Shown here: positions 8,112 through 31,944 of the stretch, piece after piece
Position numbering within the stretch: the first letter of the stretch is position 1
Layout: every line of letters starts with the position of its first letter
IMG/VR virus record: IMGVR_UViG_2698536471_000008
Length of the DNA stretch: 36,707 nucleotides
From: a virus
Lineage: Duplodnaviria; Heunggongvirae; Uroviricota; Caudoviricetes
Strand: one strand, 5' to 3'
Notes under the pieces: generated by a model
Told to the model about the DNA's origin: nothing
Databases searched by the model: none
The model's input: the letters and a program-made list of their open reading frames with translations, nothing else
Program-made: the position numbers and the translations under genes

Positions 8112-8412
8112 AATCGCAGCGCCATTAGGTGGAGATGCCATTATCGAATTTGATGATAATGAAGAAGTTTCCGGGCGTTTAAGCATTATCTCCGGTGACA
8201 TTACCGAGGACATGATCGCTGAAGCCATAGCTGGGGCAAATCCCAATAGCTATATGGGATTCGTTAACACCCTTGATGCTCCCGCAAGTGATGTTCTCCG
8301 AACGCTGCATCTTTACGCTGGCTGGTTTGTTGATTGGCCAGCAGTAGATGGTGGCGATGAGGACGACGACGACGATGATTTTGGTGATCATGTAGACCAG
8401 ATCGTATATTGA
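8101..8412 (+). CDS. Small acidic protein (hxr position), last gene of the plus-strand operon
   Basis: 103-aa ORF overlapping the end of the DdrB-like gene; C-terminal poly-Asp tract (DEDDDDDD); followed by a terminator. Confidence 0.5.
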   Translation: MQIKIAAPLGGDAIIEFDDNEEVSGRLSIISGDITEDMIAEAIAGANPNSYMGFVNTLDAPASDVLRTLHLYAGWFVDWPAVDGGDEDDDDDDFGDHVDQIVY

Positions 8413-8414
8413 AG

Positions 8415-8440
8415 AAATCCCGCCAATTGGCGGGATTTTT
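8415..8440. terminator. Bidirectional intrinsic terminator between convergent operons
   Basis: AAATCCCGCC-AATT-GGCGGGATTT hairpin followed by T-run on the plus strand and a U-rich tail on the minus strand. Confidence 0.6.
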
Positions 8441-8443
8441 ACC

Positions 8444-9538
8444 TCACGAGAAACTCTTTTCTGATGTCAGCCAACAGTGCTCGTGCATATCTCTTGGTGG
8501 TTTTTCGACAAATGCCTCTTCAGCCACATCCTGCCAGGGGATTTGTTTAGCCCATTCAGTTATAGCGTTATGGTTTGCCGAGAATAACGGTATTGTATAG
8601 GCCTTCAGCCAGTCTAATGTGTTGGAGTTGTGTTTTTGAGCGTGATGTTTCGCATGGTGTTTGGCGATCACGATCGTAGGCACTACCCATTTACTACCGT
8701 CAGTCATTGTGAAGTGCATATTACGGGGAACAGATGACTTTTCCATCAACTCCCGAATCCCGGGGAATTTCCCCAAGATCAATCGGCGATATTCATCGCT
8801 ATTGCGCCCACCAAACTCTTTGGCTTTGAATTCAAGATATGCTTCAGAAACGAGAGGTGAATCCTCTGTGTTTAGAGTTATCGCCGTGAAAAAACCAGCA
8901 GGATTGTTTTTACTATGGGCCAACCGGTGATGCGAATCATAAAAGTACCCTTTCTCGCGTTCCGATGGTTTCGACAGCAACAGCAGGCGCGAGTCATAAT
9001 TGGTTAAATTGCCAGTTATCACTGCATGAGCGCGATCGCTGATTTCCGCCGAGTTAATAACGATGAAAAGATCGTGCGGTCCAGTAAAACCAGCCAGAGA
9101 CTCTTCGTTATTCAGACAATAGGTTATATAGACGCATCCCCATGTTTCACTGATATGCACCAACCCTTTGTCAGGGTGTATTCTGAAATAATTGCCAAGA
9201 AAAGGGTGTTTTTGGGTAACTCGCTCCCAATAACGGAACATATAGTCAATTATTGTTTTTCGACAATCGTTAATCGCAGGAGAAACAACCACTGTACGGG
9301 AACACGAATACAGTATTGTTTGCAGGATGCTAATCACTGCCACAATAGAGGTTTCCCCAATACCATGTGGTGTGGTGGCAGTGATTTTGGCTCCGGTGTT
9401 CTTTATCGCGTTAATAATTTTTGCTTGATGAGGTGTTAACTCAATATCAAGCAACTCTTTTGCTGCCAGTTCCCAATTGTCTTTATACCGTTCTATCAGT
9501 GCTAACCAGGCAGATTCATTCTGTATACGATTAATCAC
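8444..9538 (-). CDS. PacB paralog: terminase-large-subunit ATPase-like protein with degenerate Walker A/B and no nuclease domain
   Basis: Clear similarity to the in-window PacB across its N-terminal ~270 aa, including an identical [11 protein letters not shown] block; Walker A GHGTGKS is replaced by PHGIGET and Walker B IIDEASG by IVINSAE; ends at 364 aa with an unrelated C-terminal tail. Confidence 0.75.
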   Translation of the reverse strand: MINRIQNESAWLALIERYKDNWELAAKELLDIELTPHQAKIINAIKNTGAKITATTPHGIGETSIVAVISILQTILYSCSRTVVVSPAINDCRKTIIDYMFRYWERVTQKHPFLGNYFRIHPDKGLVHISETWGCVYITYCLNNEESLAGFTGPHDLFIVINSAEISDRAHAVITGNLTNYDSRLLLLSKPSEREKGYFYDSHHRLAHSKNNPAGFFTAITLNTEDSPLVSEAYLEFKAKEFGGRNSDEYRRLILGKFPGIRELMEKSSVPRNMHFTMTDGSKWVVPTIVIAKHHAKHHAQKHNSNTLDWLKAYTIPLFSANHNAITEWAKQIPWQDVAEEAFVEKPPRDMHEHCWLTSEKSFS

Positions 9539-10439
9539 TTTCCACCTCTTCCGTGGTGTTTTCTTGCAGTTCTGTTAATGCAGCACGACATAGGTTCCGG
9601 GCATTGGCTATAGCCACACTTTTGACTTCATCCGTCATCGTGCAGGTAATGTACTGATCGAGTTCTTCAGCGCGGATGATGCTTTTGCCAATCAGAAACT
9701 GTATTTGCCATAGCAGATCGGCATCCATAATCAGAATTTCTGCCGGGCCTTCAGGGCCAGCCGGGAAGGAAACATAAGACTGTTTGCCCAGGCCGACAAC
9801 TCGACAACTTGCTTCAAGAATTGCGCGCTTGAGGTCTGACTTTATAACGGAAACAGGTTGATTTTCACCAGTGATTACGCCGTTGACATGGAAAGGCATG
9901 TAGCTTGAAATACGCTCTACTTTCCACACGCCAGCAAGCGATCCTTCATGCAGTACAATGGGGGTAACCGCGAGTTTCATCTCACCATATAACTGCTGGC
10001 AGATAGCTGGATTGCTGAATACATCTAAAGGCTCACATTCAAACAGCGGCGCAATCTGCATGAGGTCCATCATGGTCATCCCTGGGGTACGAGCAGTAAT
10101 GAATTTGCGCATACCAGTATCCATTGCGCTCCAGATTGCTACACCATGCTTTTTGCTCACTTCTTCAGTAAAGCCAAGGTGGCACATGATGGTTTTTTCG
10201 ATAGCCAGATCAGAGATAGAAACCTTTTCGCCAGGTACTCCATCATTATTGATGGTCACTTCGACACTCTGGCCATTACGTAGGCGGTATTGAATGGTTT
10301 TAGTATTTTGTGCTGTCATAGTCTTTTCTCTGCTTAAAAACTGATGTATTGCGTCTTCAGGTGGGTTAGGAATGTTTTCCCACCAGCGAAAGCAATATCT
10401 CGTGGTGTTCTGTTCGTTAAAAACGCGTGCCATTGCCAA
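9531..10439 (-). CDS. Hypothetical protein, upstream partner of the PacB paralog (N-terminus uncertain)
   Basis: ORF overlaps the downstream gene by 8 nt; an internal ATG at 10319 preceded by GAGAAAAG is a plausible alternative start (262 aa). Confidence 0.6.
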   Translation of the reverse strand: MAMARVFNEQNTTRYCFRWWENIPNPPEDAIHQFLSREKTMTAQNTKTIQYRLRNGQSVEVTINNDGVPGEKVSISDLAIEKTIMCHLGFTEEVSKKHGVAIWSAMDTGMRKFITARTPGMTMMDLMQIAPLFECEPLDVFSNPAICQQLYGEMKLAVTPIVLHEGSLAGVWKVERISSYMPFHVNGVITGENQPVSVIKSDLKRAILEASCRVVGLGKQSYVSFPAGPEGPAEILIMDADLLWQIQFLIGKSIIRAEELDQYITCTMTDEVKSVAIANARNLCRAALTELQENTTEEVESD

Positions 10440-10521
10440 CTTTGGCGTTTTTTAGCGAGTTCGTGCTTTTGTTGGCGTTTGGACCACCGCTTTTCTTTCA
10501 GTCGTTTTTTACTCATAAACT

Positions 10522-11010
10522 CTAAAACGGAATATCGTCTTCAAAGTCCATTGGAGGTTCGTTATTGGCGCTGCTCTGAGGTTTGCCGCCACCGCTGTAT
10601 TGCTGGTGGTTTTGAGGTTGGTTTGACTGCCCCCAGCCATTTGAGGACTGTGAATCGTCGCGGCGAGTGCCGATCATTTGCATGGTGCCGCCCTGGCTGA
10701 CGATAATTTCCGTCGTGTAACGTTCTACACCGGCGTCATCAGTCCACTTACGGGTTTTAAGTTTCCCTTCGATGTAGACCTGAGAACCTTTTCGTAAATA
10801 CTCACTCGCAATTTCAGCAAGTTTTCCGAACAAAACGACTTTATGCCATTCTGTTTGCTCTTTCTGTTGGCCCGTTTGCTTATCGCGCCATGATTCATTC
10901 GTTGCGATGCTGAGTCTTCCGACTGCGCCGCCATTTGGTATATACCTGATCTCCGGGTCTTGCCCCAGGGTACCAATCAGGATGACTTTGTTTACACCGC
11001 GTTGTGCCAC
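10522..11010 (-). CDS. ssb: Single-stranded DNA-binding protein
   Basis: OB-fold SSB N-terminal region, Gly/Gln-rich linker and canonical acidic C-terminal tail DDIPF; apparent GTG start. Confidence 0.9.
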
Positions 11011-11029
11011 TTTTCTTACCTAATAAAAT

Positions 11030-11046
11030 AAATTAATTAGAGCAAT
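11030..11046. promoter_or_regulatory. C1 repressor operator in the ssb-lyz divergent intergenic region
   Basis: AAATTAATTAGAGCAAT matches the reverse complement of the recalled P1 operator consensus ATTGCTCTAATAAATTT at 16 of 17 positions. Confidence 0.6.
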
Positions 11047-11179
11047 AATGTATATCTTTGAAACGTGGCTAACAAGTGATTTGCATTATCCTGTGCCTTC
11101 TAAAGGGATCGAGTCAGTCGGTATTGGCTGTGAATGAGTGTTTGTCCTGGAGCGTAAAAAATTCGCTTATGAGGTCTTT

Positions 11180-11737
11180 ATGAAGGGAAAAACAGCCGCA
11201 GGAGGCGGTGCAATTTGCGCTATCGCGGTGATGATTACCATCGTGATGGGTAATGGCAATGTGCGAACCAACCAGGCGGGGCTTGATCTGATTGGTAACG
11301 CTGAAGGTTGCCGACGTGATCCATACATGTGCCCGGCGGGGGTATGGACTGACGGGATCGGTAATACACACGGGGTAACGCCGGGTGTGCGAAAAACCGA
11401 CCAGCAAATCGCCGCTGATTGGGAAAAGAATATCCTGATCGCTGAACGCTGTATTAATCAGCACTTCCGGGGCAAAGACATGCCCGATAATGCCTTCAGT
11501 GCAATGACAAGCGCGGCATTCAATATGGGATGCAATAGCTTACGGACCTACTACAGCAAAGCGCGAGGCATGCGAGTAGAAACGTCCATCCACAAGTGGG
11601 CGCAGAAAGGGGAATGGGTGAATATGTGTAACCATCTCCCTGATTTCGTGAACAGTAACGGCGTGCCCCTGCGAGGTTTAAAGATTCGCCGTGAAAAAGA
11701 ACGCCAGCTTTGCCTGACGGGGCTTGTCAATGAATAA
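11180..11737 (+). CDS. lyz: SAR-type endolysin (lysozyme)
   Basis: 185-aa product starting MKGKTAAGGGAICAIAVMITIVMG (N-terminal signal-anchor-release segment) followed by a lysozyme-like domain; RBS GAGG 5 nt upstream of the ATG at 11180 (the track ORF starts further upstream). Confidence 0.85.
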   Translation: MKGKTAAGGGAICAIAVMITIVMGNGNVRTNQAGLDLIGNAEGCRRDPYMCPAGVWTDGIGNTHGVTPGVRKTDQQIAADWEKNILIAERCINQHFRGKDMPDNAFSAMTSAAFNMGCNSLRTYYSKARGMRVETSIHKWAQKGEWVNMCNHLPDFVNSNGVPLRGLKIRREKERQLCLTGLVNE

Positions 11738-14826: not shown

Positions 14827-17800
14827 ATGAACAAGCTATCTATGGGGGTGTTTCGCTGTTCAAGTGTCAGCGAAATATTGAAATACATTAGGGCAATAAC
14901 ATCTCACCGAGCGCCGATTAAATACGGCGTGGAAAAGGTGGAAGGCAAAAGCTATGACCGACTGCGCCGTGAGGCGAATCAGAAGGCGATAGATTTGCTT
15001 AATTCGCTGGTGGACGGCGCGACACTGACAGATGAACAGCGCCAGATCCTGGCTGGGTACACCGGTGAAGGCGGCATTGGCGGGTCCGTCTCCGAATATT
15101 ACACACCAAAGCCGATCGCTGAAGGTGTCTGGGAGATCATGAAGCTCTACGGCGCGGACGTAGGTAACACTCTGGAACCATCGGCGGGAACCGGCGTTTT
15201 TAATGAGACAAAACCGGTTGGTACGGTGATGACCGCGACTGAGATCAGCAGTGTTTCCGGTCGTATAAACCAGCTGTTGCACCCGGAAGACAGCGTACAG
15301 ATTTCTCCGTTCGAACAACTGGCTGTAAGCACGCCTAACGATTCATTCGACCATGTTGTGGGTAACGTTCCGTTCGGTGGTCGTGATAACACACGCAACA
15401 TCGATAAGCCTTACGCAGAAGAAACGGACATGGGTTCTTACTTCATGCTCCGCATGCTGGACAAGATAAAGCCAGGCGGATTCATGTGCGTGATTGTGCC
15501 GCCGTCCATTGTTTCAGGTTCAAACATGAAGCGGTTACGCCTGCGCCTATCACGGAAAGCTGAATTTCTTGGTGCCCACCGCTTGCCTACCGGTACTTTT
15601 GACGCAAACGGGACCAGTACAGTTGTTGATGTGGTGCTGATGCGCAAACATCCGGCAGAGATGGCTGAGAAAATCCCCCTGGTGGATGAAAGCACTCTCG
15701 AATCGGCAAATGTGCTTTGGCCAACGTTTATTTCTGGCAAGTGGTTTGAAAAGGACGGCCGCCGGTTTGTTCATGGCACCCAGGAAAAGGGCTTCCAGGG
15801 GCGTATTGAGGTTCGTGCCGACGGTCAGATTGATAACCAGGCTCTTAAAGCGAAGCTGATTCATCGTTTCGAAAGCCGTATCGACTGGTCTTTGCTCGAT
15901 ATGGCTGAACCGTCACCGACCGCAGACGTTGTTGGTGAAGGGGAAATGCGCCTGATTAATGGCGTATGGCAAAAATATGCTGGTGGTCGCTGGATTGAAG
16001 CTGATGCCGGGAAGGAACTTAAGATCGATGCTGCCAGTTATGGCGCGGATAGCTGGGAGGCTCTTCAGCGTAACCTGACTACAACAGAAGGCCGTCTCGG
16101 CATGACATTTACCCAGATGGCAAATGTCCGCGATAAGTACACCACATCAATCAGCGACGATATGGTGCAGCTGGTGGACTGGATTAACAGCCAGCCTGAA
16201 AAATACCGTGAACGCTTGTATCGCGGGGCGATGATTGGCCGGATGTTAATTGAATATCAGGACATGAAGGCCGCCGGGCATAGTGCTGAACAAATCGAAC
16301 AGCAGCGCCTTTCTCTGGTATCCCGTTTGCAGGCAGAGATTGACCGTTTTGGTAACCCCGGTCGCGGTCCGATAGCGAAATTGTCGGGGAGCGGTGCGCG
16401 CGCTTGGTTTGCTTTCCGTGGTGCAATTAAGCTGGATGGCACTATTTCTGACGAGCTGACAGGGAAGCTGGTTACGCATGATTCCAGCGCAAGTTATGAC
16501 TCCACCAGCTATCAGGACACCCTGCGTTATCTCTATAGCGATCTCACCCGCGATCCAATCCAGCTCGATGATTTCCGCCTTGCGTTTACCGGCGAACTGC
16601 CAGCCAGTGATGAAGAGTTGCTTAATTTATTGGCCAGCACCCCTGGTATTGCGGTTTCACCGTATGGCGGGATTGTTCCGTTCGCCCGCGCCACCAGCGG
16701 CGACATTAACGAGATAGTGGCTCCAAAACAGGAATTCCTCGCCACACTCCCCGACGGTCCAGTAAAGAACAACGTCCTTAATCAGCTGGCAGCTATCGAA
16801 GAGAAGCGCATCAAGACGCCAGCAGAGAATATCCGGTTTAAGCTCAATAGCCGTTGGTTCGACCGTTCCGTCATTCTGGAATTTTTGCAGGAAAACGGCT
16901 ATCCGGATCTGCGCTATGTGCAGTCAGTGCAGCTGGAAGGCGACGAAATGGTTTCTGACACCTATCACGGTGGTGATGGTCTGTTCGTCGGGCACCGATA
17001 CGGTGTCGTCCAGCGCAAGGATAAAGAAACAGGTGAGATTCGCTACGAGTGGGACCGTAAATCAGGTGAAAACGCGACCGGGTTCCCGGCACAGCTGGAA
17101 AAGTATCTCAATGGTGCGCGTATCGGTGGCAAAGATAGCGCGACGGCGAACGGCTACCGCGAGCAGATGGCACTGCTTGAGGACCAGTTCAATAAGTGGA
17201 TCAAGACGCACGATCGCTACGATGAGCTGGTTGCCAAATACAACGATGTGTTCAATAGCAATATCCCGTATGAACACTCTGGCGATCCGCTTGGGTTGAA
17301 GGGATTAAGCGGTAAGCGCCAGCCATTTGATTACCAGAATAGCGAGGTGCGCCGACTGTCCGAAGATGGGCGCGGCATCCTGGGCTTCGGCACCGGGCTG
17401 GGTAAAACCACGACCGCGCTGGCGCTTGAGGCGTTCAACTATGAGAACGGTCGCTCCACCCGTACTGCGTATGTAGTGCCTAAATCAGTGCTGGAAAACT
17501 GGTATTACGAAGCAAAAGAATTCCTGAGTGAAGAGGCATTCAGTAACTACCTGTTCGTCGGTCTTGATGTGCTGATGGATGGCGATCAGATTCGCCAGGT
17601 GCAGGTGCTCGATGAGAACGGTAAACCTGTTCTTGGTACTGATGGCACTCCAGTTATGCGCGATGCTCTTAAGCTGGCAGATGAAGCCACTATCACGGCG
17701 CGGATGAACGCGATCCCGCACTCAAATTACCGTGCAGTCGTGTTTACCAAAGAACAATACGCCCGCATTCCGCTACGTGATGACACCGTAGATGAGCATG

Positions 17801-27106: not shown

Positions 27107-27123
27107 AGAATTATTAGAGCAAT
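27107..27123. promoter_or_regulatory. C1 operator (Op99-type, reverse orientation)
   Basis: ATTAGAGCAAT core at 27113-27123 with adjacent AAATTTT. Confidence 0.6.
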
Positions 27124-27183: not shown

Positions 27184-27210
27184 TTGACAATTGCTCTAAT
27201 AAATTATAGT
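27184..27210 (+). promoter_or_regulatory. Promoter with overlapping C1 operator driving the imc-coi-c1 region (P99-like)
   Basis: TTGACA (27184-27189) followed by ATTGCTCTAATAAATTA (27190-27206, 16 of 17 to consensus) and TATAGT at 27205-27210. Confidence 0.6.
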
Positions 27211-27444: not shown

Positions 27445-27654
27445 ATGGCTTTCATTCCACCAACCATCGACGACGTTAGACATTGCTCTAACGCTTTATC
27501 TGTAGACCCTGCCGAAACCGACGCTGCCCGCGCCATTGCTGAACACTACTCAAAGATATCCAATCAGGAGTACCGCATCACCCAAGACGACCTGGATGAT
27601 CTCACTGACACAATCGAATATCTCATGGCCACTAACCAGCCAGACTCACAATAA
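27445..27654 (+). CDS. coi: Coi, C1 inactivator
   Basis: 69-aa product MAFIPPTIDDVRHCSNALS..., recognised as P1 Coi; immediately upstream of c1. Confidence 0.85.
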   Translation: MAFIPPTIDDVRHCSNALSVDPAETDAARAIAEHYSKISNQEYRITQDDLDDLTDTIEYLMATNQPDSQ

Positions 27655-27764
27655 ATGCACTAATAAATCTATTATTTTCGTTGGATCCTTCTATAATGGT
27701 GGCCAACAACTCCCAGTGTAATCCGCTGTGAGTTGTTGGCCATGTCAATTCTGGAGGAGGATCA

Positions 27765-28640: not shown

Positions 28641-30125
28641 TTATTCATTAAGCCATGCCAGAGCTTCATCAACCTGCGCTTCGTCTTCGACGCTAAGCAC
28701 TTCATCCTGGGGAACATAGTTCGCCAACATAGCGAAACAATATGTATCCCAATGGTCCGGTGAGTGCAGGTTGAGTTTTTTCTTCATATCTTCCTTTGAC
28801 ATCACCTTCCATTGACCTGCGGAATTTATCCCTACCGGTATCTTTGATGCTTCCTCTATAGTCGCAGCCCCCTTATCAAGCCTCATACGCCCTGATTTTA
28901 CAGCTTCTGCCGCCTGAATATTCGCGAAAGCGCGCATATCGAAATAAAGGCTTTTATCTTCACGGCTGTGCATCTTTTTACCCCAGCGGATACGCTGGAC
29001 GGTAATGCCATAGCGTTCGTACATTAGATCAGCCGTCGATTTCCCCAAGCCATCGCCATCAATAGCTATGGTTATGTTCGGGAACCGTTCTGGGTTACAT
29101 TCTGCGAAAATCTTGGCGGCTAACTGCGTTTCTGTAACGTCTGTGTATTCCAGCATACGATAGTTGATTACACGGCGTTTATTTCGCTGGCCGGACACCA
29201 TCATGATATTAATAACGGACTTATCTCGTCCTGTGCCACCAGCAACGTCAACACATGCAACCCAGCCCCATCCTTTGGCAATCTTGACCTTTCGCCGCGT
29301 CGCCCGCTCAACCTCATCACGACCAAGAAGAAAGCCATCTTGAGATTTGGGAAATTCACCACGTACTTTGATCATGTACATGGGGTTATCACGACCGCCA
29401 TACTCCGCAAGTTTTGCTCGTATAAATTTTGCATCTACAAGCGGAGATTCTTCACTATTCAGTATTATCGCAGTAAACAATCCATCAGGATTTCCCGGGC
29501 GAATAGCTAGTCTGTGGTGTGAATCGTAGAAATAGCCTGAAGGTCGCGTAGGCTGGGAAAGAAGCAGAATACGGTTATCCTTACCGGTCAGCGCACCTGT
29601 TATCACACTGAATGCTTTATCACTCACACCCGACGCTTCGTCGATGATATACAAGAGATGATCGGCGTGTTCACCAGCCAACGCCTCCTCATTCCCGGGG
29701 CGACAGGACTTTATCAATATTGTCCAAACACCCTTGCCAGTCACCTCAAAAAAAGACGTTTCTGTAAGAATGAAATACTTCGACAACCACGGGAATCTGC
29801 TAACAGCAGTAGCCCAATTGCTCTTTATGTATTTGAAAATACCATCAAGGACTTGCTGTCTTTTGTTAGCGACCAGAATGACGCGAGCGCCGGGGAAAAA
29901 CATGATGAAGAGTATTGCAATGATACTCGTCATATCCGATTTACCAGTACCATGGCCGGAGGTCACACTTGTCCAACTGCCGTCCTGCTGCGTGGACTCA
30001 ATGATCTCATCCTGCTGCCAGGTTGGTGTCTTCCCAAACAACACATCAGCGGCCGCAATCCAGTCATAACGATATAGCGCCACAAGCTCGCGCCAACGTG
30101 GGTCCGTTACGCAACTTCTGGCCAT
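28641..30125 (-). CDS. pacB: Terminase (pacase) large subunit PacB
   Basis: 494 aa; Walker A GHGTGKS, Walker [12 protein letters not shown]-terminal nuclease-like region; adjacent to pacA. Confidence 0.9.
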
Positions 30126-31927: not shown

Positions 31928-31944
31928 CAATACATTAGAGCAAT
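31928..31944. promoter_or_regulatory. C1 operator upstream of lpa (Op88-like)
   Basis: Minus-strand ATTGCTCTAATGTATTG, 14 of 17 to consensus. Confidence 0.6.

Follow-up and report, generated by a model that had tools for sequence, protein, structure and literature searches.

Organization of the PT locus

We analyzed a 36,707-nucleotide (nt) stretch of viral DNA (IMG/VR record IMGVR_UViG_2698536471_000008), referred to here as the window, which represents a P1-like phage-plasmid (Punavirus). The gene under study encodes a 364-amino-acid (aa) pseudo-terminase, hereafter PT, which is a nuclease-less and, to judge from its motifs, catalytically dead paralog of PacB, the large terminase subunit (TerL) of the same phage-plasmid. 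On the minus strand the genes are ordered ssb (10522-11010), an open reading frame (ORF) of 302 or 262 aa (9531-10439 or 9531-10319), and PT (8444-9538). PT converges with hxr/ddrB of the Dar anti-restriction operon. It lies in the predicted ssb-isaA operon, presumably an early accessory operon, and not beside pacA as pacB does; pacA and pacB are located ~20 kb away. The 3 kb around the PT gene are 96-99% identical to several isolates named P1 and to phage vB_EcoM-813R1, and PT copies of 96-99% identity are present in P1-like phages and plasmids. Reference P1 covers 63% of the same 3 kb. The features of PT and its paralog are as follows.

8444-9538, minus strand: PT gene, 364 aa, with a GTG start at 9538 and the stop codon at 8444-8446 (ORF list; BLASTP against PacB)
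8753-9538, minus strand: degenerate TerL/PacB-type ATPase-fold domain, PT residues 1-262 (hhalign, AlphaFold2, Foldseek)
9347-9370, minus strand: degenerate Walker A motif PHGIGETS, aa 57-64, with E62 at the position of the PacB lysine (alignments)
9053-9070, minus strand: degenerate Walker B motif LFIVIN, aa 157-162, with I161 at the Asp and N162 at the catalytic Glu position (alignments)
8918-8950, minus strand: 11-aa block, aa 197-207, identical to PacB residues 193-203 (BLASTP)
8447-8752, minus strand: C-terminal "tail" domain, PT residues 263-364, in place of the nuclease domain
28641-30125, minus strand: pacB, functional large terminase and source paralog, 494 aa, with GHGTGKS and IIDEASG intact

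PT retains a terminase ATPase fold and has lost the catalytic residues

PT and the PacB of the window are 35% identical over 284 aa (BLASTP, E 1e-51), with PT residues 11-285 paired to PacB residues 11-289. The alignment includes the identical 11-aa block that a sequence-only reading of the window had pointed out, and the F-Y-D-S-H-H core of this block is invariant across the PT family. When a PT-family profile was compared with a profile of 21 terminases, the two matched with 99.94% probability (hhalign, E 4e-37) over aa 1-260 only. The AlphaFold2 model of PT, computed from 98 input sequences, was confident (predicted local distance difference test score, pLDDT, 93.6; predicted template modelling score, pTM, 0.88). 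Its best matches in the PDB, as determined with Foldseek, were the large-terminase ATPase domains of Sf6 gp2, P74-26, T4 gp17, and D6E. hhalign, AlphaFold2, and Foldseek thus agree that PT contains a TerL-type ASCE ATPase domain, homologous to PacB over its whole length and of the same predicted fold, and the expectation of an ATPase fold with a disrupted P-loop was borne out. PacB itself matches phrog_2 (terminase large subunit) with E 1.7e-44.

The Walker A sequence SGHGTGKS of PacB is replaced by TPHGIGET in PT, so that the lysine becomes E62, and the Walker A loop of the window PT contains no basic residue. The Walker B sequence IIDEASG of PacB corresponds to IVINSAE, part of the segment DLFIVINSAE, in which the acidic pair is replaced by I161 and N162. 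The loss of all three residues, which the sequence-only reading had proposed, was recovered identically in pairwise, MAFFT, and profile-profile alignments. GK[S/T/D] and [D/E]E are kept in all 118 related terminases retrieved by a profile search (118/118), and only PT and its orthologs deviate. The RNase-H-like nuclease is absent as well. PT is 130 aa shorter than PacB, the alignment with TerL ends at aa 260, and no part of the nuclease domain could be aligned with the final ~100 aa, a helix-rich region without a nuclease match. The early truncation and the missing nuclease domain had therefore been described correctly in the sequence-only reading. The tail, which it had called unrelated, is no filler and belongs to a widespread domain family of its own (see below). 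Finally, PT is not encoded beside a small terminase in a packaging module.

The sequence and the predicted structure together identify PT as a putative pseudoenzyme that keeps the TerL ATPase fold without its catalytic residues. We regard this anatomy (a dead ATPase-fold paralog with no nuclease and one extra domain) as almost certain. PT is predicted to be unable to hydrolyze ATP because the Walker A lysine and the Walker B acidic pair are lost, and unable to cut DNA because the nuclease domain is absent. With catalysis lost, it would therefore act only by binding. Two public records, MH422554 (16006-17100) and MH445380 (116879-117970), label the PT gene "terminase large subunit". The label is misleading, because PT has neither the catalytic motifs nor the nuclease domain and lacks four of the five defining features of a terminase. 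Pfam scans of PT and IsaA, the product of the upstream gene, gave no match, and PDB sequence searches with profiles of PT, the tail, and IsaA returned nothing useful. A word-indexed protein search found three proteins with PT as query and four with the tail alone.

The PT family is old, fast evolving, and apparently under selection

A scan of IMG/VR recovered full-length PT relatives in three lineages, the P1-like, D6-like, and JK004-like phages. P1-like copies are 91-100% identical to the window PT. D6-like phage-plasmids, in which PacB shares 56% identity with that of the window, have three PT subtypes with 48-53% identity, and the JK004-like phage (locus L037) encodes a PT with 37% identity. 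Across the five subfamilies thus defined, the Walker A position reads GETS, GRPQ, GQKT, GHKS, and GTKT. The Asp position of Walker B is occupied by I, V, T, M, and L, and the Glu position by N, D, E, D, and N, so that the Asp is lost in all five. Because the motif residues vary between orthologs while 35-54% of the rest of the protein is conserved, the Walker sites are, to judge from these alignments, no longer constrained in the PT family.

In a rough neighbor-joining tree of the ATPase domains, PT forms a clade that is sister to the PacB clade of the P1-, D6-, and JK004-like phages. Identities of the ATPase domains are 35-54% among PTs versus 59-81% among PacBs. The sister position and the lower identities point to one old duplication of the PacB ATPase half in the ancestor of these three groups, probably followed by faster evolution of the copy.

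This descent raises the question of a role in packaging, in which a dead subunit that keeps the PacB surfaces for PacA, pac DNA, or PacB itself would modulate the timing or frequency of pac cleavage and the start of headful packaging, for example by sequestering PacA or capping the PacB ring. The closest relatives of PT are indeed the PacBs of the same phage group, conservation between PT and PacB is highest over the first 50 residues and in the block from aa 186 to 260, and PT retains a C-motif-like LLLSxP[ST] as well as R81. However, about three quarters of the P1-like plasmids, as well as P1 and D6, package normally without PT. Packaging is a late function, whereas PT belongs to a presumably early operon under C1 control, well away from pacA/pacB. 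PT also evolves faster than PacB, its presence does not track the PacB type, and a poison subunit would harm its own phage. We consider a regulator or adaptor of packaging rather unlikely.

Among 5426 complete E. coli genomes, 100 carried a total of 101 PT copies, of which 99 were on plasmids; all 101 were full length. PT was present in 118 of 509 P1-like plasmids. The ratio of nonsynonymous to synonymous substitution rates (dN/dS) of P1-like PT copies was 0.2-0.6 in both domains, versus about 0.1 for isaA and ssb. The lost catalytic residues and the elevated ratio relative to the neighboring genes are what would be expected of a nonfunctional relic of a duplicated or recombined terminase gene. 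Nevertheless, all 101 E. coli copies have an intact reading frame, as do the five subfamilies, the most distant of which is 37% identical. Both domains show dN/dS values well below 1, the AlphaFold2 model is confident, and the start/stop coupling with isaA is conserved. A relic is therefore highly improbable. Because dN/dS is 0.2-0.6 and the gene is always full length, PT is not a decaying pseudogene but, as far as these patterns indicate, an intact accessory gene under purifying selection.

The C-terminal tail belongs to a large family of small phage proteins

The tail of PT matched the C-terminus of phrog_17928 over the whole domain (E 3.6e-15). Its conserved pattern is D-G-S-x-W...P...I-A...T-x-P-L-F...W-A...W, and the family consensus reads MPDGSxWxVPVxxIAxxRAxYYA...EDTxPLF...EIxDWAxNNMNWxDV...GWxNG. 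An exhaustive HMMER search with the tail profile over 1.8 billion cluster representatives (clusters at 50% identity) yielded 800 clusters at E<=1e-3 and 244 at E<=1e-10. Nearly all of the matches were stand-alone proteins of ~100 aa, and the PT architecture occurred in one representative only. Occasional fusion partners were DUF1351, Lar_restr_allev, Phage_gp49_66, and PP-binding. Pfam, PHROG, and PDB searches yielded neither a Pfam model nor a separate PHROG for the family, nor any solved relative detectable by sequence. Stand-alone members are strongly acidic (median isoelectric point, pI, 4.3; net charge -10), and their genes are arrayed with other small early ORFs of phages. By contrast, the tail of the window PT, although of the same family, is fused to a dead TerL ATPase domain and is neutral and His-rich.

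We conclude that the tail is, on the evidence of its distribution, an autonomous domain of ~95 aa. The clearest evidence comes from the comparison of L037 with Cronobacter phage JK004, two phages that are ~77% identical in DNA. In L037 (6583-9062), dnaB is directly followed by PT. In JK004 (L003 2369-4306), dnaB is followed by an unrelated 96-aa gene and then, at the same genomic position, by gp35 (L003 4010-4306), which matches only the tail of the L037 PT (76.5% identity). The idea that JK004 gp34 and gp35 represent a split PT was rejected, as gp34 has no similarity to PT and gp35 matches the tail only. With its roughly 800 clusters of small, acidic proteins from early phage regions, the family is a promising candidate for a role in host takeover or anti-defence.

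The surroundings of the tail also bear on a role of PT in replication or recombination, in which the tail would bind single-stranded DNA-binding protein (SSB), a DnaB-type helicase, or a recombinase, or would inhibit a host nuclease, while the dead TerL domain provides DNA binding or bulk. PT follows ssb in P1-like, dUTPase in D6-like, and dnaB in JK004-like phages, and the tail-only homologs follow dnaB in JK004. Xanthomonas CP2-like phages fuse the tail to a DUF1351-like protein beside recombinase, exonuclease, and SSB genes, and another tail homolog lies near an SSB gene. The acidity of the stand-alone family is shared by many phage inhibitors of DNA-binding host enzymes. This adjacency is weak, however, because early regions mix DNA-metabolism genes with unrelated small accessory genes. 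Moreover, the tail of the window PT is not acidic, and no fold match points to a binder of DNA or SSB. Such an accessory role is unlikely.

Further members of the family were found at L004 1885-3300 and L008 5592-5897. The first of these loci belongs to Xanthomonas phage Tenjo and encodes a 471-aa protein with a DUF1351-like N-terminal part and the tail domain. Its gene lies immediately upstream of the recombinase, exonuclease, and SSB genes, and the DUF820 label on the Tenjo record was not supported by a Pfam scan. Two very large proteins, P0128 (2693 aa) and P0191 (1983 aa), gave 13-18 short matches to the middle of the tail profile, which may reflect a repeat protein or a low-complexity artefact.

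PT is paired with isaA in a variable slot

The features of the isaA-PT junction are listed below.

9531-10319, minus strand: isaA, 262 aa when started at the ATG at 10319; extended mechanically, the ORF reaches the TTG at 10439
9531-9548, minus strand: overlap of the isaA stop and the PT start, GTGATTAA, at 9531-9538, with the Shine-Dalgarno sequence GAGGTGG at 9542-9548 (sequence)

The ORF upstream of PT, in which the sequence-only reading had recognized no similarity, was identified as IsaA. It is 93% identical to P1 IsaA over 304 aa and occupies the same position downstream of ssb. Three starts come into question for isaA, namely the TTG at 10439 (302 aa), the start of the P1 annotation (320 aa), and the ATG at 10319 (262 aa). 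phrog_2326 covers aa 44-302 of the 302-aa ORF, and the annotated homologs, 260-264 aa in length, begin at the ATG at 10319. This ATG is likely the real start, because homologs, the PHROG profile, and the insertion point of a Tad2-like gene (see below) agree on it.

The 8-nt overlap between the two genes, noted earlier for the window, proved to be conserved. isaA lies directly upstream in 27 of the 29 IMG/VR loci with full-length PT; the exceptions are a contig end and L037. In D6-like phage-plasmids, IsaA homologs of 43-48% identity adjoin PT upstream. Three subfamilies whose proteins are only 43-53% identical keep the overlap of isaA stop and PT start as GTGATTAA, ATGGCGACTAA, and ATGCTGACGCCTAA (8, 11, and 14 nt). 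Because the overlap is preserved in divergent lineages despite its differing sequence, we infer that isaA and PT are translationally coupled and that the two proteins are produced stoichiometrically. Since IsaA is also found alone, it had been considered a mere neighbor of PT, a view that was revised in light of the overlap conserved in the D6-like lineages. The association is not exclusive on either side. Some loci have IsaA by itself or accompanied by isaB or a HipA-like kinase, and the JK004-like phage has PT without IsaA.

P1 matches the window up to 9530, the last base before the isaA stop, and again from 8410 leftwards. Window positions 8411-9529 have no P1 counterpart, and where the window has PT, between isaA and hxr, P1 carries isaB and IS1. 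The absence of IS1 from this locus, as first stated from the sequence, was confirmed by sequence comparison, which found neither IS1 nor isaB anywhere in the window. The suggestion that PT with its partner represents the intact form of the P1 isaA/isaB locus was not upheld. P1 IsaB (YP_006489) is unrelated to PT, with no significant similarity (best BLASTP segment E 0.05 over 57 aa), and plasmid NZ_CP116167 contains isaA-isaB without IS1. For the same reasons, IsaB as a fragment of PT left behind by insertion of IS1 was rejected. Judged from these comparisons, the uninterrupted P1 allele is isaA-isaB, and PT and isaB are alternative cargo in one slot. The orphan P1 gene isaA thereby gains a partner and a context, and reference P1 would lack PT only because it carries the alternative cargo isaB.

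The slot is a recognized variable region, RD-2 or region 2, of P1-like phage-plasmids (PMC6906374, PMC9603915), and both ssb and isaA are non-essential in P1 according to CRISPR interference (PMC10695390). The P1-type arrangement was counted seven times in a plasmid search with the isaB-IS1 segment, the matches of which were dominated by IS1 copies. Other occupants between isaA and hxr are a helix-turn-helix (HTH) plus HipA_C kinase, annotated YjjJ, or nothing. Variants of the slot in P1-like plasmids are exemplified by the following loci.

L099, 2571-4189: isaB without IS1
L006, 1242-2546: HTH+HipA_C kinase
L007, 1255-2043: nothing in the slot

On the other side of isaA, a gene resembling Tad2 (Thoeris anti-defence 2, PF11195/DUF2829; E 1.6e-22 and 5.9e-23) is located directly upstream in all D6-like PT loci checked and also in two P1-like PT loci. 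SJ46-type P1-like plasmids carry it between ssb and isaA. Tad2-like, isaA, and PT recur as a cluster, although Tad2 is a genomic neighbor only and has no relation in sequence or fold to PT or IsaA. D6 itself also has a Tad2-like gene directly before isaA. Examples of Tad2-like genes near isaA are given below.

L005, 2031-2708, minus strand
L027, 6779-7219, plus strand
L013, 2560-3000, plus strand

Predicted expression of the ssb-isaA-PT operon

The elements relevant to transcription are as follows.

10522-11010, minus strand: ssb, first gene of the operon (ORF; position as P1 ssb)
11030-11046, minus strand: C1 operator-like site ATTGCTCTAATTAATTT, one mismatch, upstream of ssb, corresponding to P1 Ossb/Op21
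8415-8438, no strand assigned: G+C-rich hairpin between the converging hxr and PT genes (sequence, fold energy)

The C1 operator consensus had seven matches with <=3 mismatches in the window, versus 0.14 expected by chance (11030-11046, 14881-14897, 27107-27123, 27190-27206, 27654-27670, 29413-29429, and 31928-31944). The C1 operator under which the sequence-only reading had placed PT and its partner was found upstream of ssb at 11030-11046, in the place of the annotated P1ssb/P2ssb/Ossb of P1. The hairpin at 8415-8438 has a folding energy of -20.7 kcal/mol (z -5.2), and none of 200 shuffled sequences was as stable; it is likely a bidirectional terminator of hxr and PT. Because of the C1 operator upstream of ssb and by analogy with P1, ssb, isaA, and PT would form an operon that is silent in the lysogen and expressed early after induction or infection.

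This mode of expression bears on the notion of PT as a weapon against other phages. Acting as a dominant-negative terminase subunit or as a decoy, PT would poison the packaging motors of related phages or satellites that co-infect or co-reside. Building a dead subunit into a ring ATPase is a classic way to obtain a dominant-negative effect, and the PT gene occupies a variable accessory slot of a prophage-plasmid. Under the C1 operator, however, PT should be off in the lysogen, when exclusion is needed. In addition, identity between PT and any PacB is only 35-40%, so that PT is unlikely to co-assemble with foreign terminases, and it has no PADLOC match. We consider this role very unlikely.

IsaA-PT as a candidate counter-defence module

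Large terminases are treated as single-copy, invariant hallmark enzymes of phages, and bacterial sensors (Avs1-3, Upx) target the TerL ATPase domain because terminases are single-copy and invariant. That a well-studied phage group carries a conserved, selected, dead copy of this domain is unexpected, and the literature searched contains no description of it. The isolated TerL ATPase domain suffices to activate EcAvs2 and Upx, and a bridging ATP connects EcAvs2 with the ATP and Mg2+ of the terminase active site (PMC13601566). Avs-type sensors are attractive partners for PT in view of this literature on sensing of the TerL ATPase (PMC13601566).

We tentatively favor IsaA-PT as a counter-defence module in which PT serves as a non-catalytic mimic of PacB, a possibility suggested by analogy that we would not call probable. 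According to this proposal, the C1-repressed ssb promoter would drive joint production of PT and IsaA during early lytic growth and not in the lysogen. PT would mimic the PacB ATPase domain while lacking the ATP-bound active site that is read by sensors of the Avs2/Avs3 type. Before PacB is made late in infection, PT could thus occupy or divert a host factor that recognizes the ATPase domain of terminases. A counter-defence function is favored because Tad2-like and Dar genes adjoin PT and the cargo of the slot is variable and includes a HipA-like kinase. In a more specific version, which we regard as doubtful, IsaA-PT would either shield PacB from terminase-sensing receptors (Avs1-3, Upx, or similar) or engage these in a non-productive manner, and the fused ~95-aa domain would itself be an inhibitor module. 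On that view, the missing ATP site would be an adaptation that takes away the feature read by the sensors.

Several observations weigh against the mimic. PADLOC had no match for PT, IsaA, or IsaB, and NCBIfam none for PT or IsaA; with no curated defence or anti-defence model matched, only the Tad2-like neighbor supports an anti-defence context. Full-text searches found no published terminase decoy or dead terminase paralog. A protein that binds an Avs sensor would more simply be expected to trigger than to block it. The gene neighborhood is weak evidence, since DNA-metabolism genes (ssb, dUTPase, dnaB) are equally frequent neighbors of PT and isaA. Three of the PT subfamilies contain a Lys-Ser/Thr displaced by one residue and may retain residual nucleotide binding. 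The JK004-like lineage has PT without IsaA. Because JK004 itself keeps the tail only, it may also be the tail, and not the TerL-like domain, that carries the function. In addition, a simple scan found no minus-strand promoter inside 8300-11200, although the same scan also missed the annotated ssb promoters. PT offers a concrete and inexpensive test of terminase mimicry against terminase-sensing immunity, or else of packaging tuning.

The nearest known likeness to PT is T4 vs.8, a TerL-ATPase paralog with intact Walker motifs that activates EcAvs2 (PMC13601566). Both proteins are extra, phage-encoded copies of a TerL ATPase domain that lack a nuclease, and both have their genes in early or accessory surroundings. 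In contrast to PT, vs.8 keeps Walker A (GRQSGKS) and Walker B (IIDEP), comprises 219 aa, and has no tail domain. The likeness is one of architecture only, as homology to PT was not found and BLASTP gave just a 25-aa match with E 0.027. Because no sequence similarity between PT and vs.8 was detectable, the two proteins have, on this comparison, arisen independently from different terminases.

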